The translations under genes and the position numbers were made by a program. From the NCBI GenBank assembly GCA_043758025.1, contig JAYVOH010000098.1, forward strand, positions 199-64,198: DNA of 64,000 nt, in the 5' to 3' direction. The DNA is from Verrucomicrobiota bacterium (lineage in GTDB: Bacteria > Verrucomicrobiota > Verrucomicrobiia > Verrucomicrobiales > Verrucomicrobiaceae). Under the pieces are notes generated by a model. It was not told the DNA's origin, did no database searches, and was given only the letters and a program-made list of their open reading frames with translations. Below, one piece after another: positions 6,001 to 43,638 of this stretch (position 1 is the first letter of the stretch; each line of letters starts with the position of its first letter).

Positions 6001-7933
6001 CACGGGCAGCCTGACCAAGACCAGCACCGGCACCTCGACGCTCACCGGGGCGAACACTTACACCGGCGCGACGACCGTGAACCTCGGCACTCTGGCCCTG
6101 GGCACCGGCGGGTCGCTCGGAGGGACAGCCGTGACCGTCGGCAGTGGCACCACTCCGACCGCCACGGCGGGCAACGCCACCTTGCAGATCAATGGAAACT
6201 ATACCATCGGCACCACCTCCCTGGGCGGCCTCACCATCAAGGGCGGCAACACCGGCGGCACGCCTTTGGGCCAGGGAACGCTGAGCTTGCAGGATACGAC
6301 GATCAACACCCTGACTCTGGCCAACACCTCGGCCACCACGAACCTGACCCTCGGCGGCACCGCTGGAAATCCCTCCCTCCTGAGCTTCGACCTGGGCAAC
6401 TCCTCCACCGACCTCATCGCCGTCGGAAAAAAACTGACGCTCAACGCAGGTGGCGCAGTCATCAGCCTTAACCAGCTTGCCGGCACCAACATCGCCAACG
6501 GAACCTACACCCTGCTGAGCTTCACGGCCTTTGGCAGTGCTCCAGCGGGCGCATTCAGCCTGGCCGCCGGCAGCACGGTCTTCGGCGGTCACGCGTTTTC
6601 GTTGAGCGCTTATTCGAGCAGTTCCACAATCGAGTCGCTGATCGTCACCTCCAATGTCATTCCACCCATTGCCTACTGGACCGGGAGCCAGGACACATTT
6701 TGGAATTCTTTTGGCATCAGCCAGGTGAATACGAACTTCAGCACGGATGCCGCTGGCACCACGAATCCCAACCAGCTTCCAGGAAGCATCACGGATGTTT
6801 TCTTCACCGCCAACAGCGCCGCCAACCTCTCCACGACGCTCGGTTTGGACTTTTCCATCAAGAGTCTGACCTTCACCGGCACCGGCACCACGGCAGCTTC
6901 CAGCTCCGTGACCATCGGCGGCGCGAACACGCTCACGCTGGGCACCGGCGGCATCACGGTTCAGACCGGCTCCGCCGCCCACACCATCAGCAGCAACGTG
7001 GCCCTTGGCGTGGCCCAGTTCTGGACCAACAACAGCGGCAGCCTCCTGACCGTGAGCGGCAACGTCAGCAACAGCACTTACCTTCTCACCGTGGCCGGCA
7101 GCGGCAGCACCACCATTTCCGGCATCATCGGCAGTGGCAGCGGTGGCCTGACGAAGACCGGCGCAGGCACGCTCACGCTCTCCGGGCTGAACACTTACAC
7201 CGGGGCGACGTCAATCACCGGCGGCACGCTGCAAGCCGGCGTCGCGGGCGTGGGCCAGACCGGCGCCGGAGTGACTACCGTGGGCGATGGCACGAATGCG
7301 GCGACACTTGCCGGAACCGGCACCATCAGCGGCACAGTCAATGCCACCAATCACATCATTCGTGGTGTCGCCTCATTAAAGCCTGGGGACAGCGGCGGCA
7401 ATCTCAACGGTGCCTTGACCTTTAATGGCAACCTCAACCTCAACAACAATTCGCAGACGATTCTCCAGATCACCACCCGCACCGCCACCGCCGGGACATT
7501 CGGCGGCAACCCTGTCGGCTCCGCCGCCTACATCGCCTACCTCGCCGCCAACGTCGCCACCTGGAACAGCGCCACGCCCGGCAACCATGACAGCATCACC
7601 GTCAACGGCACGATAACCCTCGGCACTAACGCCGCGGGATTGATTCAGGTGCTGGACAACGGCTACGTCAGCCAAGCTCTACTTGGCGACGTCTATGATT
7701 TGCTGGACTGGAACAGCATCGTTGTGGGCAGTTTCAATTCGGGAACCACCATCCGCTCCGGTGGTGCCGGCGGTGGCGATCTCTTTCTGCCCGACCTCTC
7801 GGCGCGAGGACTCGGTTGGGACGTGCGCCACTTCACTAGTTCTGGAGTTCTCGTCGTAGTGCCGGAGCCGTCACGCGCAGTTATGATCTCGGCGGGGCTG
7901 GCTGCACTTTTGCTGCGCCGGAAAAGGCGCTGA
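1..7933 (+). CDS. Giant cell-surface protein, autotransporter-associated beta-strand repeat type, PEP-CTERM anchored (5' end outside window)
   Basis: The frame is open from the window edge to the TGA at 7931-7933. It encodes >2600 aa of Gly/Thr/Ala/Ser/Asn-rich beta-strand repeats (..GTGTLTLSGANTFTG..). The C-terminus VPEPSRAVMISAGLAALLLRRKRR is a PEP motif plus hydrophobic helix plus basic tail, typical of exosortase substrates. Confidence 0.9.
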   Translation, partial: GAGVVTFGGTVTQASGSRKLTKSGTGTLTLNGANTFVGGLIVNAGTVILGTNTAAGTGTFTMSTATIQAGGAARTLANAVTLLGNTTFSGAYDLTFTGATVVAATRTLTVSNTSTTFSGVISGAGGLTKGGSGALTLGGASANTFGGSVTVNDGTLVFNKTAGVDAMAGTVLTIGDAAGAANSATLQLSASNQIPDTAGVTVNADGQLNLQGFTDAIGTLTMSGGSVTGTGTSLLVLGGDLTVTATGTNVAQITANVGLNANRTFTINDNAVSTDNDLAISGIISTAFALTKTGAGTLLLSGTNTFSGGVNVNAGTLSMDNAAALGTGAVNVGDTAGTSGATLLFSATGGRTVTNAIAVRAGSSGTATLGGLNTGGANIFGGNITLNKSVTLTAAAGGEVAFNGVISGALFGLTKIGAGTVRLGGANTYTGLTTISTGTLAYGASNVIATGSVTVDGATAVLDLGASRTDTVGQVILDNGGVITGSGTSALGSTAAFDVRNGSVAIPLGGSVALTKSTSGTVVLSAANTYTGATTISAGTLQLGVASSIPSASAVSVSGGATLDLGGFNQTIGSLASAGTAALGAATLTTGGDNTSTTFSGVIGGTGGLTKNGSGVFTVSGTNTFTGATAINAGTLKLGAAGGLHSATAVSVAGGATFDLNSFSATVGSLAGAGSVTLGSGGLNTGGNNSTTTFSNAISGSGGLTKSGTGTLTLTGTNTFTGAVAVNTGTLALSGASGRAASASGFTIGTGATLTLDSNAGENADRIGNGAAVTFTGGTLRFLSDGNGSTETVGALNASGGASTITVTHNGAVTDSTSLTFSSLGTIAGGATVNFTATGGTLGSTTTGPHIYIAGQANGLLGGWATVGSNFAEYYIDGVRAFSSYYTGSLGININDAAKIPQLGSSSPSTAYTLTNAGTTTDLGLNLNDLATVDLGAASTRTLNLAGGGLIKSTATATTISGAGRLTAGGTASGTLSVSVDTGHTLTISSVIINNAGVNGTYGDGDDGVVSLSKGDAGLLVLSGASTFGGSVFINAGTVQIGAENNLGASANGVIFGGGTLSVTAGFTAGTGKVLTVSSDLSGTLDIASGQTLTLGNASDVLTTGNTAGVLLKAGAGALVIQAANPAFDGTMQIDAGSVELRHAQSLGDSVNRGRITLNGGTLKLRNDTGTNFANDVTVAASSTVDVARLTGTTPAVTHTLGALSIGTQTLTISGSNGAALTFGAVTLTGGATFNPTTADATLAAVSGMFGFTKTGAGTLVLNGAGSYTGTATVSVGTLRLGVAGGVASTSAVSVASGATFDLNSLSATIGSLTGAGSVTLGSGTLTTGGDNTSTTFSGVISGGGGLTKTGSGVFTVSGTNTYSGITSVSSGVLRLGSAGGVPSSSALSVSVAIGATFDLNNFSATIGSLSGAGSVTLGSGTLTSGGDNTSTTFSGVISGTGGLTKTGTGALTLSGADTFTGAVNVNNGVVIAQDSAALGSTAGGTTVASGAELRIAGGIAVGAEPLTLSGSGTGSAGALRIISGIASAAGNITLAAAASIGADAGQLTLGGTISGGTNTLTFTGAGNIQADGIISGSSALVKNGAGTLKLTAANTYTGATTINAGAVNVQNGAAFGATGAGAVTLVSGAAIQLNNASGINVGNKSLTLNGTGISGAGAIDSILGHHSWAGSITLATDTTIAVDADSLTISGVIGESGGARALTKTGAGTLVFVGSNSYTGATLINAGILQLGSSERIGDTSAVLIAAGATLNFNDFDETVGSLAGAGTVDFGTLLTASLSSGGDSTSTTFSGVLTGTGDLIKTGSGTLTLSGANTFTGTVFINGGVLSIDSDARLGNSANALNFGGGTLKLTSALTISRAITLSSGGTVDTAGVNSTISSAIGGVGSFTKSGAGTLSLTTANSYTGDTTVSTGTLSIGSSGAIVSANVGVSSGATLSIVSGGTIPTTTALTTDGTVNFNSATATIASLSGAGTGVLTLNSTTLTVSSGSYAGVVQNGASTGSLTKTSTGTSTLTGANTYTGATTVNLGTLALGTGGSLGGTAVTVGSGTTPTATAGNATLQINGNYTIGTTSLGGLTIKGGNTGGTPLGQGTLSLQDTTINTLTLANTSATTNLTLGGTAGNPSLLSFDLGNSSTDLIAVGKKLTLNAGGAVISLNQLAGTNIANGTYTLLSFTAFGSAPAGAFSLAAGSTVFGGHAFSLSAYSSSSTIESLIVTSNVIPPIAYWTGSQDTFWNSFGISQVNTNFSTDAAGTTNPNQLPGSITDVFFTANSAANLSTTLGLDFSIKSLTFTGTGTTAASSSVTIGGANTLTLGTGGITVQTGSAAHTISSNVALGVAQFWTNNSGSLLTVSGNVSNSTYLLTVAGSGSTTISGIIGSGSGGLTKTGAGTLTLSGLNTYTGATSITGGTLQAGVAGVGQTGAGVTTVGDGTNAATLAGTGTISGTVNATNHIIRGVASLKPGDSGGNLNGALTFNGNLNLNNNSQTILQITTRTATAGTFGGNPVGSAAYIAYLAANVATWNSATPGNHDSITVNGTITLGTNAAGLIQVLDNGYVSQALLGDVYDLLDWNSIVVGSFNSGTTIRSGGAGGGDLFLPDLSARGLGWDVRHFTSSGVLVVVPEPSRAVMISAGLAALLLRRKRR

Positions 7934-7935
7934 AC
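7912..7935. repeat. Direct repeat copy 1 (24 nt, GCTGCGCCGGAAAAGGCGCTGAAC), overlaps stop codon of giant PEP-CTERM gene
   Basis: Perfect 24/24 match to 10904-10927, read directly from the sequence. Confidence 0.9.
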
Positions 7936-7990
7936 AAATATTTAGCGCCCATCTCGCCGAAGATGGATGCGGCGCTTGCGGAGTATACTT

Positions 7991-8707
7991 TCAGTTTGCA
8001 GTCCGAACTTTCTTTGGCGCACCGCCTCGATACCCGCTCGGTGCCTCCAGCAGCCGCATTTGAGGGTCCACGTGACCTTTCCGTTGCGCCACATTCTGTA
8101 GAGAGTTCTGCTCGACGTCTTCATTGCCCCATTGATGCCAACCTAGACGCTTGAAACGAGCGAACAATTCGAGAAAAGGGCCTGGCGAACATGATTCAAT
8201 GATGTCGTAGATCTCGTCCGGCTTCCGGCTGTGCTCACGTTTGCGCGTTGCCAGCATATTCACCTGTGTCCGCCCCGGCTTGAGCGTCCTCATTGATCCA
8301 CGCACACCGAACAAAATCAGTTCAGTGACATTGCGGAAATAAAATCCAACTCCCCGACCATCAGGCCCGCCGTCTTTCCGCACCTTAAACCAGACCACGT
8401 TTGATTTGTAGGTGAACCCCCACGCTTTCATCACTTGAAGACCTTCTTGCAACAAGGCATTGGGAACCCACAAGTAGAGATGAGACTGAGCGGCAGCGAG
8501 TTTCCCGATGGGAAGATCCATGATCTCTTGGAGTTCCATGGTCGGATAGCGAAGCAGCCGCCGATGCTCTGGCGCGACCTTGCCTGTGGAATTCTGAAAG
8601 CGCCAAGGCGGGTCTGCCACGATTGTGGAATATCGGCCTTCGACCTTCTGAAGAAGATCTTCGGCGGGGGCAGGCTCAGGCGAGTGGATGCTAACAATCT
8701 TCGACAT
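7991..8707 (-). CDS. MT-A70 family N6-adenine DNA methyltransferase
   Basis: DPPW catalytic motif in ..YSTIVADPPWRFQN.., then ..HLYLWVPN..AWGF..WFK..; the C-terminal part SRKPDEIY matches the MT-A70 fold pattern. The start is placed at ATG 8707 (MSKIVSIH); the longest ORF would start at 8755. It overlaps the upstream endonuclease stop by 17 nt. Confidence 0.8.
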   Translation of the reverse strand: MSKIVSIHSPEPAPAEDLLQKVEGRYSTIVADPPWRFQNSTGKVAPEHRRLLRYPTMELQEIMDLPIGKLAAAQSHLYLWVPNALLQEGLQVMKAWGFTYKSNVVWFKVRKDGGPDGRGVGFYFRNVTELILFGVRGSMRTLKPGRTQVNMLATRKREHSRKPDEIYDIIESCSPGPFLELFARFKRLGWHQWGNEDVEQNSLQNVAQRKGHVDPQMRLLEAPSGYRGGAPKKVRTAN

Positions 8708-9317
8708 AAAGTTTTGAGGTGATTCCAAAGACAATGATCGGGCATCCACCACCACCGCCGCCTTCGATGCGCGGCAGAAGTTTACTCATGTGAGTCGTCG
8801 ATGCCCCAAACGATTCCCCGCGCCCAAGTTTAGCGACGACACTTTGAAGCTCATCACAGCGCGTGATGATGATCCCCACCGAGACGGTGCGAAGTTCAAA
8901 CAGCAGCCGGAAATTATTGAGGTCCCGATCATAAAATGGATCCTTGTTGTTCCATTCAATTTCTAGAGCGACACGATTCTTGAAGCAATCGACCTTGTGC
9001 GTTGGACTCTTAAACTCTGACTCATCCACAACAATCTTCGTGTCGAAGTGGCGTTCCGCCCATCCTTTCTTCTCAAACTCGCTGTCGATCCAGCCAGCCA
9101 CATCGCTCTTCCGACCTCCACCGACAGCAATGGCGCTTTTTAGCAACCGGAAGCGACCGAGCACATCATAAATGTCCGCGCATTGGTCTGAGAAATCAGC
9201 CTGCAGAATCGCCGACGCGTGTCTCCACTCATGGAGTTCATAATTCTCGCGGATAAATTCTGGAAAGTCTTCAAGTGCCACCGCGTGAGTTTTGCATCTT
9301 ACGGTGCGGAGCGCCAC
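8691..9317 (-). CDS. Type II restriction endonuclease, BglII/BamHI fold
   Basis: ..VDCFKNRVALEIEWNNKDPFYDRDL..VGIIITR..PIIVFGI.. parallels the BglII pattern IDFGKRDTLVEVQF..VAIIITKG..PIRLVGL (D..ExE/Q active-site block). GTG start at 9317. Sits next to methyltransferase genes. Visibly low GC. Confidence 0.7.
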   Translation of the reverse strand: MALRTVRCKTHAVALEDFPEFIRENYELHEWRHASAILQADFSDQCADIYDVLGRFRLLKSAIAVGGGRKSDVAGWIDSEFEKKGWAERHFDTKIVVDESEFKSPTHKVDCFKNRVALEIEWNNKDPFYDRDLNNFRLLFELRTVSVGIIITRCDELQSVVAKLGRGESFGASTTHMSKLLPRIEGGGGGGCPIIVFGITSKLYVEDC

Positions 9318-9418
9318 AAGAAATCATTATTCAGGTCAATCAGGTGGGCAAGGTGGGTCGTCACGACATCAATGCCAATCCACTGTCGCTTGAGCTTGTG
9401 CCGTTTACAGCGAACGAA
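9299..9418 (-). pseudogene. 3' remnant of a disrupted N4/N6 DNA methyltransferase (C-terminal AdoMet-binding region)
   Basis: The minus-strand frame reads FVRCKRHKLKRQWIGIDVVTTHLAHLIDLNNDFLWRSAP*. K(L)xRxWIGID followed by THLA is the conserved C-terminal block of beta-class DNA methylases. It begins immediately after the DUF4145 stop codon and has no start codon of its own. Confidence 0.6.
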
Positions 9419-10096
9419 TCACGTGCCCCGTGACTGCGCGTCTTTGCGGCCTCGCTCGACCATCGAAGGCAGGACATACATAAAAAGCCCAAGTGCCTTA
9501 GTAAAGTCGATACACTTCTTCGCATCTTCCTCCGTGGGAAGCGCAGCATCCTCATCGGCGTGACGCTCATTATTCGCATCAAGTCTTACATCATGGGCCC
9601 AAAGAGCCATCTCATCCGTGATGAGGCCTGCTGCCTTCGCGTCGTTGATTCTTTTGTTCAATGATCCTTCCTTCAACCCCTTCTGCTTTAGCATTGCATC
9701 CACGCTTGATGCACAAAGCATAATGGCACCGGATGGTGAGTGAAGACATTCGATCGCTTGGTTGAGAAATGATTCAGCCTTCGCGGGCAGGCCTTCCTGA
9801 ATTGCTTCCTGCCCTGGGAAAATCTCTGAAAGCGGATGTTCGTCGCTAAATGCCCATCCCAGCACAGCGCCGCCACATTTTGAGCAGACATAGACACGCC
9901 ACGATCTCGCCGAGGTTTGGTTGGAGTTATTAGTAGCAAAACGATGCACACTCTTGAGATAAGGGTTTGCGATGCTGCAATGCGGACATCGCGCAAGATT
10001 CAATGCATCGTCCGAAAGGCGGGTTGATGTCGAAGGGCGAGCCATAATCAATAGATTTTGAATTTCGTAGCACTTCAAAACTGCGTTTCCTGACAA
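9419..10096 (-). CDS. Zinc-ribbon + DUF4145 domain protein (defence-island associated)
   Basis: N-terminal CPHC..(x26)..CSKCGG zinc-ribbon-like pairs. The C-terminal helical region ..AIMLCASSVDAMLKQKG..LNKRINDA..GLITDEMALWAHDVRLDANNERHAD.. matches the DUF4145 pattern. An alternative start is ATG 10045 (MARPSTS). Visibly low GC. Confidence 0.65.
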   Translation of the reverse strand: MSGNAVLKCYEIQNLLIMARPSTSTRLSDDALNLARCPHCSIANPYLKSVHRFATNNSNQTSARSWRVYVCSKCGGAVLGWAFSDEHPLSEIFPGQEAIQEGLPAKAESFLNQAIECLHSPSGAIMLCASSVDAMLKQKGLKEGSLNKRINDAKAAGLITDEMALWAHDVRLDANNERHADEDAALPTEEDAKKCIDFTKALGLFMYVLPSMVERGRKDAQSRGT

Positions 10097-10542
10097 CCAA
10101 AGGCAAGATAGAGTGAGCCGGTGGGCTTGAGCACGCGATGCAGTTCCAGCAGGCGGTTGGCCATCATGGTGAGGTAGGCCATCATATTGTTCTCCCCGAG
10201 GAAGGCGCGCAGAGCCTGCATCATCGCCGCGACCGCGTTGTTCCGCTGGTGCAGCAGTTCATCGAACTCCCGCTCCGCCTGCTCGCCCCAATGCCATGAG
10301 TCCTCGAAGGCGGTGATCTGCGACTGGCTGTATTCTTGTAGGGCGTCTGTGCCAGACGCCGAAGCTTTGGGTGTTTCGCCGGTTGACACAACCGGCCTAC
10401 AGATATTCTTCGGCGACTTGAAGAGGAGGTTGTAGTCCCGCTTGGAGTTGAACGGCGGATCAAGGTAGATGAGGTCCACGCTCTCCGGCGCGATGGACTC
10501 GCGCAGGACGTAAAGGTTGTCGCCGTAGTAGAGCTGGTTCAT
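10075..10542 (-). pseudogene. 5' fragment of the same disrupted N4/N6 DNA methyltransferase
   Basis: MNQLYYGDNLYVLRESIAPESVDLIYLDPPFNSKRDYN.. carries the DPPF catalytic motif IV, followed by ..AFEDSWHWG..MMAYLTMMANRLLELHRVLKPTGSLYL. Homology then stops (AFGCQETQF*) at about nt 10104, where intact family members continue with HCD... Confidence 0.7.
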
Positions 10543-10653
10543 GCCGTGCCTGTCTTTGGGCGATGCTAACCCGAATGTCAACGATGTCTGCGGGCCGAAC
10601 GCCACACTGCCTTACCTTTAGGGGGATAGCTCTGGGGAAACGCTGAACAAAGG

Positions 10654-10714
10654 GTAGAAGCGACGCCCTCGTCGCTTGCTGCACTGGGATAAGCGACGGT
10701 GGCGTCGCTTCTAC
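10654..10714. repeat. Twin-hairpin palindromic element (clamp GTAG/CTAC, two hairpins with identical 8-bp stems AAGCGACG/CGTCGCTT)
   Basis: Hairpin A is 10658-10677 (loop CCCT) and hairpin B is 10691-10710 (loop GTGG). The outer 14-nt arms 10654-10667 and 10701-10714 are perfectly complementary. Confidence 0.7.
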
Positions 10715-10789
10715 TTGCGATTAATCAGCGCTTCCCAGTGCGGGCTAACAAGTTCGTGCCCTTGGCAGCGAGCGGAGTTTTTTTGCAGC

Positions 10790-10830
10790 GCACGCGCCCT
10801 CGCGTGCCAAAGTCCGCGCCTCCGCGGACT
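10790..10830. repeat. Two adjacent GC-rich hairpins with C-rich tetraloops
   Basis: GCACGCG-CCCT-CGCGTGC (10790-10807) and AGTCCGCG-CCTC-CGCGGACT (10811-10830). Confidence 0.6.
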
Positions 10831-10903
10831 CCCTGCGGATGCCACTTGTTGTTGGATCATCGAGGGCTTGCGCTTCGCGAGGGCGCAAAGGGCCGCACGC
10901 GAG

Positions 10904-10927
10904 GCTGCGCCGGAAAAGGCGCTGAAC
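10904..10927. repeat. Direct repeat copy 2 (24 nt) closing the restriction-modification islet
   Basis: Perfect match to 7912-7935. Confidence 0.9.
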
Positions 10928-13375: not shown

Positions 13376-14899
13376 ATGATGATCGAAGGCGAAGTTTCTG
13401 TTCTGGATTATGGCTCGCAATACAGCCAGCTCATTGTCCGCCGCGTCCGCGAGCTGGGATTTGTCTCGCATCTTTATCCGCCTGCGCGGCTGGGCGAACT
13501 GAACAAACCGGGTGCCATCATCCTCAGCGGCGGCCCGCGCAGCACGAGCGAGAAGGATGCGCCGGACGTGGATTTTGCGAAGCTGAACTCGTTCAGCGTG
13601 CCAGTGCTCGGTGTCTGCTACGGCATGCAATTGCTCAACATCAAACACGGCGGCACGGTGAAGCCCGGCGTCACGCGCGAGTATGGACCAGCCAAGCTTG
13701 TAGTCGCGCAGGACTGCGCGTTGTTCAAAGGCGTATCGCACGAGTCCCAGGTGTGGATGAGCCACAGCGACACCTGCCAGGATCGCGGCGGCGAGACCAA
13801 GGTCATCGCGACCAATGAAGACGGCGTGCCCGTGGCTCTGCAATGGAGCTCGACTTGCTTCGGCATTCAATTCCACCCGGAGGTCACGCACTCGCACGAA
13901 GGCACGGCCATCCTGCGCAACTTCCTCACCAATACCGGCGCGAAACTAGCGAAGTTCGACATCCAAGCCTTCAAGACGCAGATGCTGGAGCAGATCAAAC
14001 ACGATGTCGGCAATCGCGAAGTAATCTGCGGCGTTAGCGGCGGCGTTGATTCGACCGTGCTCGCCGTGCTGTTACAGCGTGCGAGCGTAAAAGTGCGCGC
14101 GATCTACATCGACAACGGCCTGATGCGTCTGAACGAAACGGCCGAAGTGATAGCGCAATTTGTAGAAGTCGGCGTCCCCATTGAAGTCATCGATGCCAGC
14201 AAGCGTTTCCTCGATGCGCTAAAAGGCGTGACCGATCCCGAGCAGAAGCGCAAGATCATCGGCACTATGTTTGTCGATGTGTTCTGGGGCGTGGCCGACA
14301 ATGTGGAGCTGCTCGCACAGGGCACGCTTTATCCCGACGTGATCGAAAGCGCCACCAGCGGCAGCATTGCCAGCGTGATCAAAACGCATCACAACCGCGT
14401 GGATCGCATCATGGAACTCAAGGCGCAGGGCAAGGTGCTGGAACCGCTCGCGGAACTCTTCAAAGACGAAGTGCGCGCGCTCGGTGCGAGCCTCGGCATC
14501 CCCCATCACGCACTGTGGCGGCATCCGTTCCCTGGGCCTGGGCTCGCCGTGCGCGTGCCTGGTGAGATCACCGAGGAGAAACTGACGATCTGCCGCGCTG
14601 CTGATGACATTTGGATCAAAGAACTGCGTCGCAGCGGCCAATACGAACGCGTGTGGCAGGCCTATGCCGCGCTGTTGCCCGTGAAAACCGTGGGCGTGAA
14701 AGGTGATGAACGAAGCTACGAAGCCGCCATCTCCCTGCGCGCCGTGATCAGCGAAGACGCCATGACCGCCGACTGGGTGGAACTCCCCTATGAAGTGCTG
14801 CGTGCCGCATCGAATAAGATCCTGAACTCGGTCAAAGGCATCAACCGCGTGCTCTACGATATTTCCACGAAGCCGCCGGCGAGCATTGAATGGGAGTGA
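13376..14899 (+). CDS. guaA: GMP synthase (glutamine-hydrolysing)
   Basis: N-terminal GATase (..VLGVCYGMQLL..FHPEV..), ATP-PPase loop GVSGGVDS, and canonical C-terminus ..KPPASIEWE*. Confidence 0.95.
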   Translation: MMIEGEVSVLDYGSQYSQLIVRRVRELGFVSHLYPPARLGELNKPGAIILSGGPRSTSEKDAPDVDFAKLNSFSVPVLGVCYGMQLLNIKHGGTVKPGVTREYGPAKLVVAQDCALFKGVSHESQVWMSHSDTCQDRGGETKVIATNEDGVPVALQWSSTCFGIQFHPEVTHSHEGTAILRNFLTNTGAKLAKFDIQAFKTQMLEQIKHDVGNREVICGVSGGVDSTVLAVLLQRASVKVRAIYIDNGLMRLNETAEVIAQFVEVGVPIEVIDASKRFLDALKGVTDPEQKRKIIGTMFVDVFWGVADNVELLAQGTLYPDVIESATSGSIASVIKTHHNRVDRIMELKAQGKVLEPLAELFKDEVRALGASLGIPHHALWRHPFPGPGLAVRVPGEITEEKLTICRAADDIWIKELRRSGQYERVWQAYAALLPVKTVGVKGDERSYEAAISLRAVISEDAMTADWVELPYEVLRAASNKILNSVKGINRVLYDISTKPPASIEWE

Positions 14900-14927
14900 G
14901 GCCGCGGGTGCCAGCGTCCTGAGTGCC

Positions 14928-15584: not shown

Positions 15585-15816
15585 ATGGCTGGCACCCCTT
15601 TATGGGGTGCAAAATCAGTCGTTTCGTTACATTTGCAACTCTACCAATTGAGTCTCGCTATGAATCACGGGCTGCAGGCTGTCGGCGAAATGGTTGGGGT
15701 CGGTTCTCGTGATTGGGCTCCTCGCAATCAAACAAAATCTAGTGAGCATGGGTCACAAGCCCTGGCCCGCATCATCTGAATTTGTTGTGTTGGAGCATCA
15801 ACTGGCTTGTTGAAGG

Positions 15817-16077
15817 CTATTTGTAAATGTCACCACGTGGCCCAATCGCCAGAACGACGATCATGTCCTGTTCCCGGTCCCATTGGTAAATCACGCGCAG
15901 ATCGCCGTGACGCAGCCGAAGACAGCCGGTGTATTCTCCCTCCATTGGTTTGACATTGGGTGTGTTTTCGGGGTCTTGGGCAAGGGCTTCGAGCTTGGCG
16001 ATGAGCTGGGCTTTGATGCGCCCGTCCATGCGCTCCAGATATTTCCGCGCCTTCCGGTGGACGAGGATCGCGGCCAT
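15817..16077 (-). CDS. Type II toxin-antitoxin system RelE/ParE family toxin
   Basis: 86 aa; ..KARKYLERMD..I..KLEALAQDP......G.LRLRHGDLRVIYQWD....IVVLAIGPRGDIYK is the RelE/StbE pattern. It shares 1 nt with the upstream antitoxin stop (TAATG). Confidence 0.8.
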   Translation of the reverse strand: MAAILVHRKARKYLERMDGRIKAQLIAKLEALAQDPENTPNVKPMEGEYTGCLRLRHGDLRVIYQWDREQDMIVVLAIGPRGDIYK

Positions 16078-16280: not shown

Positions 16281-16285
16281 GTCTG

Positions 16286-16314: not shown

Positions 16315-16368
16315 ACTACGCTTAAGGAGAAGGGCGTTGCGGTGTTGTATCCAGTCAGGCTGGCCGGA

Positions 16369-16436: not shown

Positions 16437-16437
16437 A

Positions 16438-36610: not shown

Positions 36611-38782
36611 ATGACTTCCGCTGCCGCGACCGCAACCCATCATGCCACCATCAATGGTTTGGAGAATGTGCCGAGTGTCGGTGTGCTCATCATTCCGAGC
36701 AGGCTGGGGTTCTCTGATCTGATCAATTTGGAAAAAATGCTTCCCGGGCGGGAGCTGGTTTATTTGATCGAGCACGACGCGCAGTTCTCGGCGGAATTAA
36801 AAAAGCATCTGCACAGCGACGGAGTCCATGCCCTTGAAATACCCCCTGGCCCGGCAAAAGCGGATGCGCTGCATCGCGAGATCCAAGGCGCCGCCGCCGC
36901 TGGCAAAGTCATCATCTATGTGCCTTCAGAGTTGGTGGCCCCCGGCGCCCCCCTGTGCACCATCCCAGGCGCGAAGCTCGAATTTCTCATGCAGTTGAAG
37001 TTGCCGGTGCTGCCTCTCCACGTGCTGCACACCCATGATCTCGCCATGGCTATTGAGAGGAAGAGGCCGTCAGACGCGGCGGTCTTCTCTTTCGGCACCG
37101 TGGTGTCCGAGGGTTCGGTGGCAGCGATTCAGGAGTCACTCTTGCTGCTCTCGGAGAAAAGCTTCTCCCGGCTTCCGCTGCTTGATCTGCATCTGGCGCG
37201 CGCACTATTGATGGGATTAAAAAAACACCGTTCTCACGCCTGTGTCATTGACGGGAAAGACGACAGGATTTTCAGCTTCGATAGGATTCTGGCCCTGGCC
37301 ATCGTGCTCAGCAAGCACATCCGGTCCGCCACCAAGAAAAACCGGGTGGGCATCATCCTCCCTCCGTGTGGGGCCTCCACGGTAGCCAACGTCGCGGTGC
37401 TGCTGGCCGGGAAAGTTCCGGTGAATCTCAATTTCACGGCGGGTCGCGCCGCGATTGAAAGCGCTATGAAGCAGGCCGAGACCGATCACTACATCACCTC
37501 CGATTTGTTTGTTCGGAAAGTGCAGACTTTCCCGTGGCCGCCCAACCGCCAGCTCACTTTCATCGAGCGACTCCTGCCGATGAAGAAGGGGGCCATCATC
37601 TTTTGGTCGGCCGTCTCCAAGTTTCTCCCGACCTCCATCCTCGCGATGGTTCTGGGCGTTCCCAAAAAAGGCGGCGACTCCGAGGCCACGCTCCTTTTCA
37701 CCAGCGGCAGCAGCGGCGACCCCAAGGGCGTGGTGATGAGCCATCGCAATCTCATGGCCAACATCTGCCAGTTCAGTTCGCGCCTGAATCTGAAGCGTGG
37801 AGACAGTATCCTCGGCTGCCTGCCGCTCTTTCACTGCTTCGGCAGCACGGTGACGCTCTGGTATCCCATGGTCCAAGGGATCAATGTGGTGACTTATCCC
37901 ACGCCGCTGGAGATCAAAAAACTCGCCGAGCTGGTGCACAAGCACAAGATCACCGTGATGATTTCCACCCCGACCTTCCTGCGCGGTTATCTCAAGGGCG
38001 TGAACCCTGAGATGCTGGCGTCATTGAATCTCATTGTCACCGGCGCGGAGAAACTACCCAGGGCGGTGGCCGATGCCTTCGAATCGCGCTTCGGAAAAAA
38101 AGTTTACGAAGGATATGGCCTCACGGAAACCTCGCCCGTCTCCAATGTCAACCTGCCCGATCCCGTGCCACCCAGTGGAGCCGGTGATAGCTCGGTCATG
38201 ACCACTCATCGCCCGGGCAGCGTCGGCCAGTTGGTGCCGGGCTTGGCGATGAAAATCACCGTGCCGGAATCTGACTCGCCCCTCAGCTTGCATCAAAGCG
38301 GCATGATCTGGTTCAAGGGGGCCAATGTTTTCAAAGGCTATCTAAAAAATCCCAAGAAGACGGAGGAGGTCATTCAGGACGGATGGTTCCGCACTGGTGA
38401 CATCGGACGCATGGATGCAGATGGTTTCCTCTATATTGAAGGCCGTCTCAGCCGTTTCTCGAAGATCGGCGGCGAAATGGTGCCGCACGAAACCGTTGAG
38501 GAGAACCTGGTCAGAGCCCTGAATCTCGAAAGTGAAAGCAACCGCTGCATCGCTGTGGTCGGCATCCCCGACGCGGACAAAGGTGAGGCGCTGGTGATGC
38601 TCACCACCTTGCCCGGCGGTTCCGTGCAGCAGGAGATTCTCGATCTGCGTTACAAGCTGCTCGATCGAGGCATGACGCCGCTCTGGATACCCAAAAAGAT
38701 GATCCGCGTTCAGGAAATTCCCGTGCTGGCCAGCGGCAAGCTTGATATCAAAGCGTGTGAAGTCATCGCGATGACTGCGTGA
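36611..38782 (+). CDS. Aas-like bifunctional-type protein: degenerate acyltransferase-like N-domain + AMP-dependent acyl-(ACP/CoA) synthetase
   Basis: AMP-binding motifs LLFTSGSSGDPKGVVMSHRNL, YGLTETSP, GWFRTGDIG and the terminal ..ASGKLD. The N-terminal ~230 aa resembles PlsC-type acyltransferase, but the HxxxxD position reads PSRLGFSD. Confidence 0.8.
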   Translation: MTSAAATATHHATINGLENVPSVGVLIIPSRLGFSDLINLEKMLPGRELVYLIEHDAQFSAELKKHLHSDGVHALEIPPGPAKADALHREIQGAAAAGKVIIYVPSELVAPGAPLCTIPGAKLEFLMQLKLPVLPLHVLHTHDLAMAIERKRPSDAAVFSFGTVVSEGSVAAIQESLLLLSEKSFSRLPLLDLHLARALLMGLKKHRSHACVIDGKDDRIFSFDRILALAIVLSKHIRSATKKNRVGIILPPCGASTVANVAVLLAGKVPVNLNFTAGRAAIESAMKQAETDHYITSDLFVRKVQTFPWPPNRQLTFIERLLPMKKGAIIFWSAVSKFLPTSILAMVLGVPKKGGDSEATLLFTSGSSGDPKGVVMSHRNLMANICQFSSRLNLKRGDSILGCLPLFHCFGSTVTLWYPMVQGINVVTYPTPLEIKKLAELVHKHKITVMISTPTFLRGYLKGVNPEMLASLNLIVTGAEKLPRAVADAFESRFGKKVYEGYGLTETSPVSNVNLPDPVPPSGAGDSSVMTTHRPGSVGQLVPGLAMKITVPESDSPLSLHQSGMIWFKGANVFKGYLKNPKKTEEVIQDGWFRTGDIGRMDADGFLYIEGRLSRFSKIGGEMVPHETVEENLVRALNLESESNRCIAVVGIPDADKGEALVMLTTLPGGSVQQEILDLRYKLLDRGMTPLWIPKKMIRVQEIPVLASGKLDIKACEVIAMTA
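38735..38782 (+). repeat. Direct repeat copy 1 (3' end of Aas-like gene, ..GKLDIKACEVIAMTA*)
   Basis: Aligns with 43591-43638. The exact 23-nt core ATCAAAGCGTGTGAAGTCATCGC lies at 38747-38769. Confidence 0.85.
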
Positions 38783-39137
38783 CTTGCGGTCCTTATTTTT
38801 TCTGCGGCAGATTCAACTTCATTGATTGCGCCACGGCATATCCGGCGAGCTTGGAGATCGCGCAGAGTGGTCGGGAGGGAGGACTTGCTCGTATGCTGAG
38901 TTCGTGAAGTGGCTGCTGTAACCGCACGCGATTCACCGCGCCCTACCGACTGCAAGCCAAGGGGAAGTCAAGACATACAGAGACGGAGCAGCCTCCCGCA
39001 AGCACAAGACAAGAAATGAAAGAAACTACTGCTACAGACTACACTACGTTGTAACAAGTTTACTCATAAGCTGACGCAGAGTGTTTCAGCGGAGGGTAAG
39101 CGCATATCCGCGAACGGCGGCGTTGTGTTAGAGTTGG

Positions 39138-40130
39138 CTATCTAGCACCGAGTTTCGGCTCAAGGTTTCTATCATTTGGAGATGGGTTTCGAAAGCCGTC
39201 CACGACCGCAAAGTGATCGCCACCCGCTATCATTCTAAATCGAACCTTGGCAAAGGAATTATCAGGTAGTTGCAGCCAGTAGTTCTTTGTCTCGGTATCC
39301 CTCCATTTTCGAATACCAAGTGACTTCGGCATATCAATTACTGTTGAAGTAGTATAACCTTTAACAGGTGCTTCAAAAGCGGTGCTATCTGTCACTTCTT
39401 GGATGCCTCCGCCATTTACGATGATTTCGCATCGCCAATCAAACGGTGCTGCTGAGTCGTCAGTGTGGGCTTCGCTTTCACACTTCACGGTCAAGATCGG
39501 TGATCCCTTCCGACTTAAGCTAATCGGTAAAGCAACTCCGTTCCGAGGAATTTTTGCTTGTCCATTGAGCCGTTCAAGAACCACCGGATTGCCAGGCTTC
39601 CGAAGGTTGAAAATTGCTGGACGACTTGGATCGGATTTATGGACTCCACGGCCGGTATCAGCAGCAAAGTCAAATCCCTGCGAAGTAGGCTTTAACTGGC
39701 CTCCACGATCAATGTCGTCGTAGCCGTCCTTCGACACGCGCACATGAAGGCTTGCACCATTCGCACGGATTGTAAACCTGCCATCAGCAGCGGAAGATGT
39801 GGAGAGTGGAGTGCCAGATTGAAGATTATTGAGAACCGTCGCACTGACGGTTGCGCCTTGCACTGGGTTCTGATTCTGATCTAGCACAATGCCATAAAAC
39901 GTGATCGGCGTTTGAAGCAATGCTAGCATTGGCTTGGCCTCTGAAGCTGGCGGTGATTGATTGCCGACATTTGTCGGCAACAGAGTTGAAGCTTCCGTTG
40001 TGTATGGCTTTGACGCCAAAGTATCGACTCTACTTTGTTTGCTGGACGAATCGGGTCGGAGACACAAAAACAGCAGTGTTACCAGAAGTAAGACCCCACT
40101 TATCCAAACAATCTTCCTTGGTGTGCTCAT
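39138..40130 (-). CDS. Membrane-anchored protein with carboxypeptidase-regulatory-like beta-sandwich domain
   Basis: N-terminal TM anchor IVWISGVLLLVTLLFLCL, and ..FYGIVLDQNQNPVQGATVSATV...ADGRFTI.. (CarboxypepD_reg pattern). ATGA overlap with the upstream gene. Visibly low GC. Confidence 0.65.
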   Translation of the reverse strand: MSTPRKIVWISGVLLLVTLLFLCLRPDSSSKQSRVDTLASKPYTTEASTLLPTNVGNQSPPASEAKPMLALLQTPITFYGIVLDQNQNPVQGATVSATVLNNLQSGTPLSTSSAADGRFTIRANGASLHVRVSKDGYDDIDRGGQLKPTSQGFDFAADTGRGVHKSDPSRPAIFNLRKPGNPVVLERLNGQAKIPRNGVALPISLSRKGSPILTVKCESEAHTDDSAAPFDWRCEIIVNGGGIQEVTDSTAFEAPVKGYTTSTVIDMPKSLGIRKWRDTETKNYWLQLPDNSFAKVRFRMIAGGDHFAVVDGFRNPSPNDRNLEPKLGAR

Positions 40131-42364
40131 GGCATTGGGTTTGGGTTGATTCTGAAAGTGTAGAGAAGCTCACGCCATACTCCAAATGTCCTCTGAAGCG
40201 ACCAAATCCACTCCGCGCTGTGTTCACTGCCGAACAGTGACCGGTAGTTGTTCTCGAAAACGAATCTGTCCATGTCGATTTGCCAAGCCCCTGGCATTTC
40301 TAAATTGGTCGGTGTTCGACCGGCGGGTAGGGATTGCGTCCGAGTCACGAACGCCATGGCCTCTTCTTCCATTGTAACAGCATGATTTGAGAATAGGTCG
40401 AATCGAATTAGCTTACTCTTTGTTCCATGTCCGTCGCCAAGATCCCAGCCGCTATTTGAATACTCGTAGGTGCGATCGGTGACACTGTTTGGTTTGTTTA
40501 TTGTTTGATTGAGGCTCCAAGCCGTCGTTGCAAAGTCATCCTCAAGATAGAAATTGGTAACTGTCGCTGTGATGCCACTGAACTTCCCAGAAAGACCGAA
40601 CTTCGTCCGGATTGATGCGTCATCGTCCGTGTCTGGTGTGGCCAAGTTCGGAATGTCAATTCGGGTGGGGTCATATGATTGTGCGGCCATCGCAGCATTG
40701 AAAAGCGCATATCGTGAGACTCCAGTCATTCCCTGGAGAAACGCAGAACCGACAACTACATTTCCCATGCTATGCGCCATGATGTTCTTGGTGTAGCCGC
40801 TGGGTAGGGATGCCACATACGACTTCAGCGCCGCACCTGAGAGCCATGCACGATACTCGCTCTTGTTGTAAGTCAGGTAGCCATTGAGCGCACTTGTTGC
40901 AGGATTGAAAGTTGGCCAACTAAAGAAAGCATATCGTCCTTTATAGCCCAGATGCCACAATCGTTTGAATGTAGTGTTTGCCCAAGTCTGTGCTTCAGCA
41001 TACGTCATGCGCCAGCTGTGAACGTGGATGATGTATTGCTTGGTTTCGTCTGGATCTGTCTGGAACGCATTTCCATTTGGGTCAGTGGTTGACTGGAAGA
41101 TCAATGGCTCAGCTGTCACCCATGGGTCAGGAACGTTGTCAGGTTCAGCCATGGGAGCTGCAACCTTGCCGCGCTCGAACATCTCTTGGACGTCCATGAG
41201 TTTGATCCAAACGCCAGCCCCCTCGGCTTCTGCTGTAGAGCCAAACTTGATGACCATGGCAAGCTGTGCTGTTCCTTTTTCACAGCCTTCAAAAATAAAG
41301 TTCAATTTCGATGTTCCTGCCGCCACACCATGCCAGTAGGAGATTGGTAGAAATGTGGTCTGGCTTCCCTTCACATCAAGCACAGATTTCTGGTGGTCAG
41401 GGTCAACCTGCAAGTTAGCCTCATATTTGTAAAACAAGTATCTCTCATCTCCTTCGTCACCTTGCGCTTTGTAAACGCGAATTCGTGGGCCGATGCCATT
41501 TACCCATTTAAACCCAACCTGCAGTTCACCCGCTTTGGCTTTCTGCACGATGGCCGACGGCAATCTCACATGCAGGCGCGTGAAGTCCTCAAGGTCACGC
41601 ACTCCATCAATGTGACCTAGTGTCGGAGAAGAACGCCAGTCCGCAAATTCAGGCGGCGAAAGCTCGTCCCTCTTCATTGCTGTCTCAACATCTTCTCCGA
41701 GAGTATAAGGATCATCATCGTTATTGATCCAGAACCTAAACGGCTTTTGTTGGCTGGTCGTGTCTTTCTCATCGAAAGTGATTTCACCATCCCTGTTGGC
41801 GTCCACTGCTAAGTCAATAGGCAGTAAACACAAGATCACAGAAATGCCATCCTGATCATTGACGCCGGGTTTATACCACTTTTGACAGTAGTGAAGCTGG
41901 ATGTCGTAAGTTTTGCCAGATATGAATACACTCGGCCACGGTCTGGCTCCATTTAAAATATCGTGTCCTTTGTCATATTCTTCCAACCATGGCTTGGTTG
42001 TGTTATCAATATTCATTTCACAGCCATCATCGGACACTAGCGTCATCAGGCAGATGAACGACTGGCCATGTTTAGCTTCCGGCAATCTGAGCGCTCCGTC
42101 GTAGGTCTTGCCTATGGCTGTGCCTTGCGTGGCATCCATGTTTTTAATCTTGAGTTTACCACTTTTTGCTTTTTCTATCTCCTTAGTATAATCTGCATAA
42201 CTTTTCGTGTGCACGACGACGCTGGGAAAGTCTCCTGTGACGTTGGCATTAGTTGGATCTTGGGCTTGAAGCAGTGCTCCCGCACCATGAAGAATGCAGA
42301 CGGCGATCAACCCTGCACGAATTCCGGGACCATTTGAGAGTAATCTGAAATGCTTTATGGTCAT
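40127..42364 (-). CDS. Secreted multidomain protein with C-terminal DUF900-type alpha/beta hydrolase (lipase/esterase-like)
   Basis: Signal peptide. The C-terminal part ..IIHVHSWRM..GYKGRYAFFSWPT..NIMAHSMGNVVV.. matches the DUF900 pattern (HG.. / FSWPS / nucleophile elbow HSMG). The N-terminal PA14-like pattern (..SDDGCEMNID..GKTYDIQLHY..) is tentative. Acidic Ca-binding-like motifs DANRDGEI and FWINNDDD. Confidence 0.7.
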   Translation of the reverse strand: MTIKHFRLLSNGPGIRAGLIAVCILHGAGALLQAQDPTNANVTGDFPSVVVHTKSYADYTKEIEKAKSGKLKIKNMDATQGTAIGKTYDGALRLPEAKHGQSFICLMTLVSDDGCEMNIDNTTKPWLEEYDKGHDILNGARPWPSVFISGKTYDIQLHYCQKWYKPGVNDQDGISVILCLLPIDLAVDANRDGEITFDEKDTTSQQKPFRFWINNDDDPYTLGEDVETAMKRDELSPPEFADWRSSPTLGHIDGVRDLEDFTRLHVRLPSAIVQKAKAGELQVGFKWVNGIGPRIRVYKAQGDEGDERYLFYKYEANLQVDPDHQKSVLDVKGSQTTFLPISYWHGVAAGTSKLNFIFEGCEKGTAQLAMVIKFGSTAEAEGAGVWIKLMDVQEMFERGKVAAPMAEPDNVPDPWVTAEPLIFQSTTDPNGNAFQTDPDETKQYIIHVHSWRMTYAEAQTWANTTFKRLWHLGYKGRYAFFSWPTFNPATSALNGYLTYNKSEYRAWLSGAALKSYVASLPSGYTKNIMAHSMGNVVVGSAFLQGMTGVSRYALFNAAMAAQSYDPTRIDIPNLATPDTDDDASIRTKFGLSGKFSGITATVTNFYLEDDFATTAWSLNQTINKPNSVTDRTYEYSNSGWDLGDGHGTKSKLIRFDLFSNHAVTMEEEAMAFVTRTQSLPAGRTPTNLEMPGAWQIDMDRFVFENNYRSLFGSEHSAEWIWSLQRTFGVWRELLYTFRINPNPMP

Positions 42365-43413
42365 GGGCGGGGCTTGGGCTTGACTTCGGTGTTGGTTGCT
42401 TTCTTTTTTAAAACTTTCTCAGCAGCATCTTTTTTTGCTTTGGCAGCCGCGATCCATTTGTCAAAATATTTTCGACATGGCGCAAGGTTGCCATCCGTTC
42501 GCAGCATTGCTGCCTCTGTCCGGGCTTGGTCGTATCGGCCCGTTGAGAGATAAATCACTGCGAGGTTGTAATGAACATCGTCCAAGTCATTTCCTTCTCC
42601 CGGTCTGATGAAGCGCGGCGCAAGACTTTTTAGTAACTGAATGGCGCATTCTGTGTTCGCCTGACCTCCAAGTGCTTGAGCCTCCTGTGCCGCATCCTTG
42701 GTAAGGCTCAATACCTTATCACTAGAGAAATGTTCCGACGACGGTTCAAGCGCAGCCAGGAGTTCACTCATCCAGCCACGCCGAACCAAATGCGTCAGCC
42801 AGCTGCTGGAACGGGCGGCAAACTGTTTATCCTTGGGGAAATTGCCTGTGTTGATCAAATCACATATGTAAAAAATGATCCTTCGCGCCATGATGCGGCG
42901 GGTTTCGGGCGTGAAGGCAACGGGGTCCTGGGAATTCATCATATAACCCAATGAGAACTCCCATTTCGCACGTCGCTCATTGCCGGTCAGTTCCGCATCA
43001 CACACAGCCAGGATCACTCGCAGGCCGGCGCACATGCCGGGCCAGTCTTTCGCTTCGTCAAGGTAAGCGTATGCCGTGGTTTCCGGCACATAACCCGTGG
43101 TGGTAATAGAAAATGGTGGCACAATGGTGTCACCTTTGGCCTTGTCCAGATAGGTCATGACACGAGTGCGGATGATTGCTGCATCAAAAGCGTAATTGGA
43201 AGCGAGTGCTTTCAAATAATCGATGTCCACATTGGTCTTGCGCCATTCTCGATCAAACAAGCGCTGAAACTCTGTAGGTTCCGTAGTTGTTCCACTCTGG
43301 CTTTCGCCAGACTGCGCATTGATGAGGCCGCATGGGAAAATCACTGCCATGACAAGCCATAGCCATGCTCCGCAACTCAATGGGAGACTCCTGAAGTTTA
43401 TGAGACGAGTCAT
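42361..43413 (-). CDS. Secreted helical (TPR-like C-terminus) protein
   Basis: The signal peptide begins at MTRLINFRSLPLSCGAWLWLVMAVIFPCGLINAQ (ATG 43413; the ORF opens at 43473). The C-terminus ..YNLAVIYLSTGRYDQARTEA.. is TPR-like. ATGA overlap with the downstream gene. Confidence 0.6.
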   Translation of the reverse strand: MTRLINFRSLPLSCGAWLWLVMAVIFPCGLINAQSGESQSGTTTEPTEFQRLFDREWRKTNVDIDYLKALASNYAFDAAIIRTRVMTYLDKAKGDTIVPPFSITTTGYVPETTAYAYLDEAKDWPGMCAGLRVILAVCDAELTGNERRAKWEFSLGYMMNSQDPVAFTPETRRIMARRIIFYICDLINTGNFPKDKQFAARSSSWLTHLVRRGWMSELLAALEPSSEHFSSDKVLSLTKDAAQEAQALGGQANTECAIQLLKSLAPRFIRPGEGNDLDDVHYNLAVIYLSTGRYDQARTEAAMLRTDGNLAPCRKYFDKWIAAAKAKKDAAEKVLKKKATNTEVKPKPRP

Positions 43414-43590
43414 TTCAGTGTTCTCCGTTGTTCGTAGAATGGAAATGGTTAACCCCAGTTTGGTTGCTGGCAATCAACAAATGGTAGATTTTCGTTACCG
43501 ACCATGCCGTGCTGATAGAATGGTGAAGGCAATCGATTGCGCCCGGCTTGATGCGAATACAAGCCGATGAAAAGAATGGTGTCCGGCTGC

Positions 43591-43638
43591 GGCAAGCTGG
43601 ACATCAAAGCGTGTGAAGTCATCGCCAGGAACGCATGA
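43591..43638 (+). repeat. Direct repeat copy 2 (orphan copy of Aas-like gene 3' end, ..GKLDIKACEVIARNA*)
   Basis: The 23-nt exact core lies at 43603-43625, with flanking partial identity. No gene body upstream. Confidence 0.85.

Follow-up and report, generated by a model that had tools for sequence, protein, structure and literature searches.

A 64,000-nt stretch of DNA from an uncultured Verrucomicrobiota bacterium (hereafter the window), representing a population known only from metagenomes, was analysed for islets of accessory DNA located behind the 3' ends of protein-coding genes. The analysis showed that accessory DNA ending in an orphan copy of a gene 3' end follows three genes: a PEP-CTERM adhesin gene (islet 1), guaA (islets A and B) and the gene of an Aas-like ligase (islet 3). 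In total, four gene-bearing islets of 1.5–4.9 kb and a gene-less hairpin element at guaA were found, and the islets contain one to four genes with defence, toxin or exported-protein cargo. Pfam was run on every islet gene and every major open reading frame (ORF) of the 64 kb, and PADLOC and NCBIfam on many of them; no integrase, resolvase, transposase or HUH domain was detected in this set, and the Phage_integrase, Resolvase and Recombinase families gave no match. The islets belong to a known, mechanistically unsolved kind of structure and are not a new system. They may be cargo-only cassettes put in by site-specific recombination, the enzyme for which was either provided in trans or lost afterwards, a reading that we hold with belief and doubt in about equal parts.

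The orphan-tail scan, in which the last 100 nt of each gene together with 40 nt downstream were searched against the window, returned orphan copies for 3 of the 42 window genes and none for the remaining ones. Repeat searches recovered the three loci named in the original prediction at the same places. An identical scan of about 960 genes of other loci gave one further true case, in a Verrucomicrobiota metagenome-assembled genome (MAG; contig L010 in our numbering), but only this one; a match in contig L013 lay inside a long ORF and was dismissed. The orphan-tail signature is therefore real; it is locally enriched and lies well beyond what chance would give.

The junctions were compared with other assemblies. 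Contig L001 spans guaA, islets A and B and the following Sel1-repeat gene at 99.97% identity, and the independent contig L099, in which islet 1 is arranged as in the window, spans the adhesin end, both adhesin repeats, the restriction–modification (RM) islet and guaB at 100%. At the left junction of islet 3 the arrangement of the window recurs in contigs L002 and L003, and L097, L098 and L100 give further support at guaB. An assembly artefact is unlikely at the junctions checked (guaA to Sel1, both adhesin repeats and the left junction of islet 3). Strain haplotypes concatenated at one hotspot through a common repeat can hardly be the explanation: the population is known from metagenomes only and L100 breaks exactly at a hairpin, but assemblies from different samples and assemblers reproduce these junctions, and the repeat copies are non-identical and hence form no collapsed k-mer nodes. 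Position 1 of L100, an independent Logan contig, corresponds to window position 10654, the first base of the long hairpin of islet 1; the contig may have broken off at the inverted repeat during assembly, or some cells may have a real structural boundary there.

The comparison of presence and absence among relatives, which the original prediction had proposed, was informative at two of the sites, and no relative with an empty adhesin site was found. The islets at guaA and Aas are true insertions, because empty sites occur in L084/L085 and L007 (guaA) and in L092 (Aas). In the more distant syntenic contigs L084/L085 (guaB 75%, guaA 82% and DegP 69% nucleotide identity), the Sel1 and DegP genes begin 80 nt after guaA, with no hairpin and no islet, while in L007 guaA (89% nucleotide identity) is followed by the double hairpin only. 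Contigs L094 and L095, grouped with the L007 lineage by cvfB and guaA similarity, carry guaA, a hairpin, a Fic gene (93% amino acid identity), a 104-nt orphan tail and the double hairpin, which corresponds to islet B without islet A; the islet B cassette is 83% identical overall between these contigs and the window at the nucleotide level. Contig L092 keeps the Aas neighbourhood (TrxB ... PDT, Aas, h554, MBL, RecN) without islet 3, and L093 has a Phd-PIN toxin–antitoxin pair directly behind Aas. The L010 case is a 620-bp ParE-type toxin–antitoxin cassette that starts on the base after the metallophosphoesterase stop and is closed by an orphan tail of ~115 nt, likewise ending at the stop codon. 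The insertion sites thus appear to be hotspots with modular, site-bound cargo. The nearest public genome fragment, L004, comes from a Verrucomicrobiota MAG at 96% nucleotide identity, and the relatives of GuaA carry the source label Verrucomicrobiaceae. The contig scan seeded with the CvfB-like neighbour returned mostly distant taxa, and the useful contigs were L004–L007 and L010 only.

The positions of the target genes, repeats and islets are collected in Table 1.

Table 1. Target genes, tail repeats, islets and islet genes in the 64,000-nt window (G + C content given as a fraction).
Feature	Position	Strand	Islet	Basis or remark
Target gene 1, giant PATR-repeat adhesin, PEP-CTERM tail (ending in VPEPSRAVMISAGLAALLLRRKRR and stop)	11..7933	+		ORF; PATR Pfam match; tail read from sequence
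Left 24-nt repeat, last 22 nt of adhesin gene including stop, plus 2 nt	7912..7935	+		24/24 identical to right copy, blastn-short E = 2.8e-8
Islet 1, 2,968 bp, G + C 0.543	7936..10903	-		Pfam, PADLOC
MT-A70 methylase	7991-8755		1	Pfam
BglII-like endonuclease	8691-9317		1	Pfam
DUF4145 protein	9419-10096		1	Pfam
Truncated N6_N4 methylase	10075-10605		1	Pfam
Right 24-nt repeat, orphan adhesin tail, 74 nt upstream of guaB	10904..10927	+		24/24 identical
Target gene 2, guaA (GMP synthase)	13376..14899	+		Pfam; tail copy c1 = 14832-14899
Islet A, 1,469 bp, G + C 0.519	14900..16368	-		Begins on base after guaA stop
218-aa protein, weak HEPN match	14928-15584		A	Pfam
ParE toxin	15817-16077		A	Pfam
Presumed antitoxin, 67 aa	16077-16280		A	Gene calls in L001
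guaA tail copy c2, orphan	16369..16436	+		64/68 identical to c1
Double-hairpin element 1, ending in short guaA-tail copy	16437..16524	+		Repeat and folding analysis
Islet B, G + C 0.617, single Fic-family gene (16708-17895)	16525..17898	+		Pfam; PADLOC match to SoFic defence model
guaA tail copy c3, begins 3 nt after Fic stop	~17899..17974	+		Alignment with L094
11-nt tandem duplication AGTGGGAGTGA, then double-hairpin element 2 and short guaA-tail copy	17975..18069	+		Sequence, repeats, folding
Target gene 3, Aas-like AMP-binding acyl ligase	36611..38782	+		Pfam; names given by sources
Left repeat of islet 3, 122 nt	38733..38854	+		True Aas tail (50 nt), 10-nt spacer, in-frame pseudo-copy of convergent-gene tail
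Islet 3, G + C 0.497	38855..43588	-		Pfam; absent from L092
CarboxypepD_reg-domain protein	39138-40130		3	Pfam
745-aa DUF900-type alpha/beta hydrolase	40127-42364		3	Pfam
TPR protein	42361-43473		3	Pfam
Right repeat of islet 3, orphan in-frame Aas tail (GKLDIKACEVIARNA and stop) and true convergent-gene tail	43589..43709	+		
Convergent neighbour of Aas, TIGR03790-family protein, 3' end within repeat	43648..45312	-		NCBIfam; synteny with L092

Several general traits that the original prediction had assigned to all of the islets hold for some of them. It had placed the accessory DNA right after the stop codon, which is exact for islets 1 and A only; the repeats of islets B and 3 reach 72–95 nt past the stop. 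At 122 nt, the repeat of islet 3 is longer than the original prediction had noted, and copy c3 derives from a 104-nt orphan. Islets 1, A and 3 are indeed lower in G + C content than the flanks (0.58–0.67), but islet B is not. Its description of the cargo at intact gene 3' ends was supported in the form of defence, toxin or exported-protein genes, and its statement that a recombinase is missing agrees with our searches.

The repeat of islet 1 has the core sequence GCTGCGCCGGAAAAGGCGCTGAAC, and its 24 nt hold a 7-6-7 imperfect palindrome, CTGCGCC-GGAAAA-GGCGCTG. The N6_N4 methylase of this islet (155–176 aa) covers just the first quarter of the Pfam model and abuts the DUF4145 gene, while the MT-A70 methylase lies on the opposite side of the endonuclease. 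One possible cause of this arrangement is that the original methylase was replaced or disrupted. Behind the islet genes lie ~300 nt of non-coding sequence, in which four tetraloop hairpins rich in G + C occur (10659-10709, 10790-10829).

The array at guaA, whose core sequence is AACCGCGTGCTCTACGAT, consists of guaA with c1, islet A, c2, a double hairpin with a 19-nt tail copy, islet B, c3, an 11-nt duplication, the second double hairpin and the Sel1-repeat gene (18135-20867). The orphan scan of the guaA tail gave matches of 64/68 and 52/55 nt. Copy c3 is what is left of a 104-nt orphan after 31 nt were lost from its interior; L094 has this orphan intact. Both c2 and c3 are succeeded by an 85-nt double hairpin and then by 19 nt that imperfectly repeat the final 15 nt and the stop of guaA, reading GCATTGCATGAGAGTGAAG in element 1; element 1 itself comprises two tetraloop hairpins with 8-bp stems or, alternatively, a single long hairpin (z = -5.6). 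The sequence common with the syntenic relative resumes at ~18108. The 11-nt unit, the last 8 nt and stop of guaA, is tandemly doubled directly after c3 (17964-17985), a slippage-type event at an attachment (att) site. The start-to-start spacings of the three guaA tail copies are 1537 and 1538 nt; their near-equality was considered as a size constraint but is probably a coincidence, as c3 contains both the 31-nt deletion and the 11-nt duplication.

Eight hairpins with GC-rich stems of 7–8 bp and tetraloops of the CCYT/RGGG type (10659-10829, 16443-16495, 17991-18040) were found within the 64 kb, all of them beside the orphan repeats that belong to islets 1, A and B. The two members of each pair can alternatively combine into a single long hairpin (z = -5 to -7). 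They may act as a terminator, a recombination site or an element resembling repetitive extragenic palindromic (REP) sequences. A dispersed REP-like family was rejected, since within the window the hairpins occur at islet borders only. Rfam gave no family at the gathering threshold on the whole window, and the tRNA/tmRNA scan of the window found none, so that there are no tRNA-type att sites there.

The two repeats of islet 3 are 77% identical over 122 nt and share a perfectly identical stretch of 23 nt, ATCAAAGCGTGTGAAGTCATCGC; the repeat runs 72 nt beyond the Aas stop, into the 3' end of the convergent gene. The islet 3 genes gave no PADLOC or NCBIfam match. According to the translations, the first and third proteins have hydrophobic N-termini resembling signal peptides or anchors.

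The surroundings of guaA in the relatives provided several further observations. The gene is 89–90% identical at the nucleotide level between the window (13325-14899) and L007, L006 and L094, while the adjacent cvfB is only 67% identical, and the gene order around guaA differs in almost all relatives examined. Either guaA is unusually conserved, or it has been exchanged between lineages along with the downstream hotspot. Co-transfer of guaA with the cassette was rejected, as sliding identity along the gene gave no clear recombination breakpoint. The functional guaA tail is identical over 33 nt between c1 of the window (14867-14899) and L094 (2313-2345) and ends in ATTGAATGGGAGTGA; all orphan guaA copies and the empty site of L007 have ATTGAGTGGGAGTGA instead. 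This gives a small hint that the tail now on guaA at occupied sites is cassette-derived. A Fic homologue (70% amino acid identity) in L096 lacks both flanking repeats and guaA, so the cassette form is not universal for this Fic family. The Fic and DUF900 proteins had no relatives among viral contigs.

The copies of the repeats differ mainly at third codon positions. The differences at codon positions 1/2/3 were 0/0/4 for guaA copies c1 and c2 (all four synonymous), 0/2/5 for the left and right Aas tails, 2/1/10 for the guaA tail and orphan of L094, and 0/0/5 for the last 72 nt of the tail and orphan of L010. The first three comparisons together amount to 2/3/19, which departs from equal use of the three positions (P = 5e-6) and also from an in-situ-duplication model that was made generous on purpose (P = 1e-3). 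The differences are mostly synonymous and the stops are kept in frame in the orphan copies, even where TAA has changed to TAG; the convergent-gene pseudo-tail within the left islet 3 repeat is likewise in frame. As the copies differ mainly at third codon positions, the incoming DNA brought its own coding-type copy of the target 3' end, from a related but different lineage. Fresh duplication of the target on the spot is disfavoured, because decay of the orphan would then ignore codons. The repeats are best described as putative att-like hybrid attachment sites rather than as fresh target duplications.

A true long target-site duplication, in which breaks staggered by 24–200 nt were filled in at insertion, is in our opinion highly improbable. 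The combination of an RM unit and addiction-type modules, without mobility genes and with long repeats over gene 3' ends, matches a published catalogue (PMC2853133), and the 24-nt adhesin repeat is perfectly identical. However, the other copies are only 77–94% identical, and the third-position synonymous bias and the kept stops are unexpected for the neutral decay of an identical duplicate. Furthermore, islet 3 is still foreign in its G + C content despite a repeat divergence of 23%.

Perfect-identity blocks of 24 nt (adhesin), 23 nt (Aas), 37 nt (islet A) and 21–23 nt (islet B) are present inside the repeats, and those of islets A and B overlap in CGCGTGCTCTACGA. Their position suggests that these blocks behave like crossover cores, and the palindrome of the adhesin repeat would resemble the core of a tyrosine recombinase. 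No motif common to the three repeat cores or to the islet-internal ends was seen by eye.

The preferred reading, site-specific recombination with an enzyme not encoded by the cassette, would proceed as follows. A cassette with one to four genes would arrive on DNA bearing an attP-like mimic, 24–200 nt long, of the target's 3' end, and crossover between the resident gene 3' end and the matching mimic would regenerate the complete target gene on one side of the insert and place an orphan tail on the other. The enzyme would be a tyrosine-type recombinase, provided in trans by an autonomous element of the same site specificity or by a co-integrated element that has since departed. The islets would thereby be equivalent to cis-mobilizable elements stacked by accretion; at guaA, this would have brought in the hairpin element first, then islet B and then islet A. 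Of this scheme, we infer the recombinase, the supply of the enzyme in trans and the sequence of insertions.

A number of results weigh against this scheme. No integrase adjoined the site in any of eight guaA or Aas contexts of relatives. The three repeat cores had 0 matches each among IMG/VR viral contigs, a scan of JGI metagenomes with a 54-nt degenerate guaA-tail pattern gave 0 matches, and the Fic protein had 0 relatives in JGI metagenomes. Integrase remnants are absent in 5/5 gene-bearing islets, which does not look like the random decay of full islands, and repeats of 120–200 nt are long for att sites. The cores, lacking a common motif by eye, would call for at least three different absent recombinases. 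Finally, mobility is deduced from comparative data alone; no excision product or circle junction was seen. Our confidence stays close to the midpoint because no matching integrase-bearing element turned up in the relatives and collections searched, all five cassettes are clean, and three unrelated cores need three absent enzymes. For the same lack of a shared motif, a single recombinase acting in trans on several att sites, as the original prediction had suggested, is unlikely. Its alternative of a non-canonical insertion mechanism is possible. The pattern has precedents among cis-mobilizable elements, the H47 island and RM insertions.

Insertion might also have been guided by homology, with no dedicated recombinase: a circle or fragment bearing the target 3' end of a related donor would integrate in the manner of Campbell by host recombination, by either a RecA-dependent pathway or a RecA-independent short-repeat route such as that of the Escherichia coli H47 island. 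The repeats would be the common homology, and excision between them would regenerate the circle, making the cassette self-perpetuating. We regard this as possible, though doubtful. It is consistent with repeats that are long and variable (24, 68, ~115, 122 and ~200 nt across the cases) and with the lack of a recombinase in the islets and the major window ORFs. It explains three unrelated targets without invoking three enzymes that are missing, homology derived from a donor would account for the xenologous, coding-type divergence of the copies, and the H47 island is an experimental precedent (PMC3191183, PMC5426353). However, RecA would act poorly on repeats of 77–88% identity with identity runs of at most 23–37 nt. 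At 24 nt, the adhesin repeat does not exceed the minimum length usual for homologous recombination and may fall below it, and it has a recombinase-like palindromic core, and the identity block shared by islets A and B at guaA suggests a fixed crossover site.

Another explanation is decay in place, by which the islets would be immobile stumps of classical integrase-bearing islands or prophages that have lost their integrase and transfer genes by deletion. The textbook account of cis-mobilizable elements has them arise in this way (PMC5704250), such decay has left islands with scattered partial tRNAs and fragmented integrases in Prochlorococcus (10.1101/2020.12.28.424599), and the 31-nt deletion and 11-nt duplication at c3 indicate that the sites are eroding. 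Nevertheless, decayed integrase fragments, which the original prediction had named as evidence against its interpretation, were not found. The islets are filled with intact cargo genes and the longest non-coding stretch inside them is ~355 nt, so a decayed integrase is not hidden there. A small recombinase in disguise was rejected as well: the 218-aa protein of islet A and the DUF4145 protein match only HEPN-type or defence-type models. Moreover, the Fic cassette is equally compact in a second lineage (L094/L095), the L010 cassette measures just 620 bp, and five clean deletions, each sparing both att sites, would be an improbable series. We therefore consider decay in place improbable.

Among the closest known systems are the cis-mobilizable elements (CIMEs). 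Integrase-less islands flanked by att sites have been described under this name, and their tandem accretion is an established model based on ICESt1/ICESt3 (PMC5704250). CIMEs and the islets have in common repeats of the attL/attR type at a gene 3' end, no integration or transfer genes, tandem stacking with extra att copies and an intact target. The CIME class fits on structure: the islets show the repeats, the gene-end position, insert-free relatives (at guaA and Aas) and no integrase, excisionase or transfer genes. CIMEs, however, are defined as deletion derivatives of known integrative and conjugative or integrative and mobilizable elements (ICEs, IMEs) and adjoin them, whereas for the islets no parent element or integrase was found, the size is much smaller (0.6–4.9 kb) and there are no remnants.

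Tyrosine-integrase elements listed as integrating into the guaA 3' end are ATE-1, the Brucella suis IncP island and GIsul2 (PMC5704250). These use the same gene end as islets A and B, with a repeat that includes the conserved C-terminal codons and the stop, and carry toxin–antitoxin cargo, but they have their own integrase beside the att site, which islets A and B lack. Assignment to a classical integrase-bearing island or IME at guaA was rejected on this point, although copies c1, c2 and c3 supply the repeats.

The H47 island of E. coli is integrase-less with extensive imperfect repeats, and it was shown experimentally to excise and integrate by means of unidentified host functions; its hybrid att sites are formed in several identity segments and its excision is RecA-independent (PMC3191183, PMC5426353). 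Both H47 and the islets are small, contain extensive imperfect direct repeats and lack a recombinase gene. H47 differs in its size (13 kb), microcin cargo, enterobacterial host and experimentally demonstrated mobility; in the islets the repeats are copies of gene 3' ends, and mobility is derived from comparative data.

RM units between long direct repeats and without mobility genes were catalogued by Furuta and Kobayashi (PMC2853133). Like the islets, they carry RM cargo, have long variable repeats that can overlap a gene 3' end and are missing in a related genome. The two repeats of such an RM unit hardly differ from one another or from the empty target, whereas those of the islets are mostly 77–94% identical with coding-type divergence, and islet cargo also includes toxin–antitoxin, Fic and exported-protein genes. 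This class was rejected: islet 1 has R and M genes without mobility genes, but its repeat is 24 bp (the class has >30 bp, around inserts of <20 kb) and the longer repeats flank non-RM cargo, while near-identity was found only in the perfect 24-nt adhesin repeat (otherwise 77–94%, 2/3/19).

Staphylococcal cassette chromosome (SCC) cassettes at the 3' end of rlmH are, like the islets, arrayed behind a conserved gene, with repeats of the 3' end of that gene at their borders (PMC6222049). They differ in the target gene, the serine recombinases and the conserved short core TATCATAA; for the islets no ccr-like gene is known. Pseudo-SCC units are recombinase-less and rely on Ccr in trans. Two further classes were rejected. 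Integron cassettes or clusters of attC sites lacking an integrase (CALIN) do not fit, as the hairpins at 16437-16500, 17986-18045 and 10654-10714 have no GTT or AAC end motifs (attC = RYYYAAC...GTTRRRY) and the borders are gene-tail copies. Transposons, insertion sequences (IS) and miniature inverted-repeat transposable elements (MITEs) do not fit either: no inverted repeats join the islet ends, no transposase domain is present, and the repeats of 24–200 nt compare with target duplications of 2–14 bp. In the literature searched, no description of such integrase-less tail-repeat islets was found for Verrucomicrobiota.

Some other loci, in relatives and in the window, deserve mention. In L006 (JANNQW010000363.1), positions 753-873 hold a 122-nt orphan guaB 3' end (87% nucleotide identity; 34 aa at 85%) with no guaB before it. 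It is followed by the gene of a 530-aa SASA-type esterase and then cvfB, and this 1.8-kb segment is missing from the sister contig L005. Instead of a cassette flanked by repeats, this seems to be DNA acquired with a homology anchor on one side only. In the ERZ21966605 contig of a Verrucomicrobiaceae relative, PEMT/ICMT-family genes (158 and 141 aa) after guaA bracket a 325-aa gene on the opposite strand, which could be another insertion that duplicated a neighbouring gene. An 8.1-kb block of the window (47804-55917), between RecN and the gene at 55918-56568, consists of two small ORFs without Pfam match and a gene for a 2043-aa TPR protein, with a low-GC stretch (0.50 over 47804-49894). The block is absent from L092, where the homologue of the gene at 55918-56568 comes ~200 nt after RecN. 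Its borders have no direct repeat, so not every indel in the window carries the orphan-tail signature. Inside the low-GC stretch, 39-nt inverted repeats with 90% complementarity (48958-48996 / 49598-49636) and a nested 21-nt pair (49036-49056 / 49542-49562) bracket ~680 nt overlapping a 236-aa ORF without Pfam match. This unit could be MITE- or IS-like.

Most bacterial integration hotspots have no recognisable mobility genes, and the route by which their cargo enters is debated. The window is an unusually dense and clean set of examples, for which the relatives give two empty sites, one lineage-shared cassette and one alternative cargo at the same site. Rather speculatively, and we think this unlikely, the islets may never have been full islands but minimal cassettes, composed of one to few defence, toxin or exported-protein genes and a coding tail mimic of 20–200 nt, that spread in Verrucomicrobiota by a host-encoded or unlinked activity. 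They would then form a dispersed integron-like system with gene 3' ends in place of attC sites, and the activity could be the same RecA-independent one that moves the H47 island of E. coli. If the islets are merely stranded remnants, they represent ordinary island biology in an under-studied phylum. If the cassettes are proven mobile, they would be a tractable natural system for how recombinase-less islands such as H47 and the RM insertions with long target duplication move, and would also show the shuffling of defence and toxin–antitoxin modules in Verrucomicrobiota.

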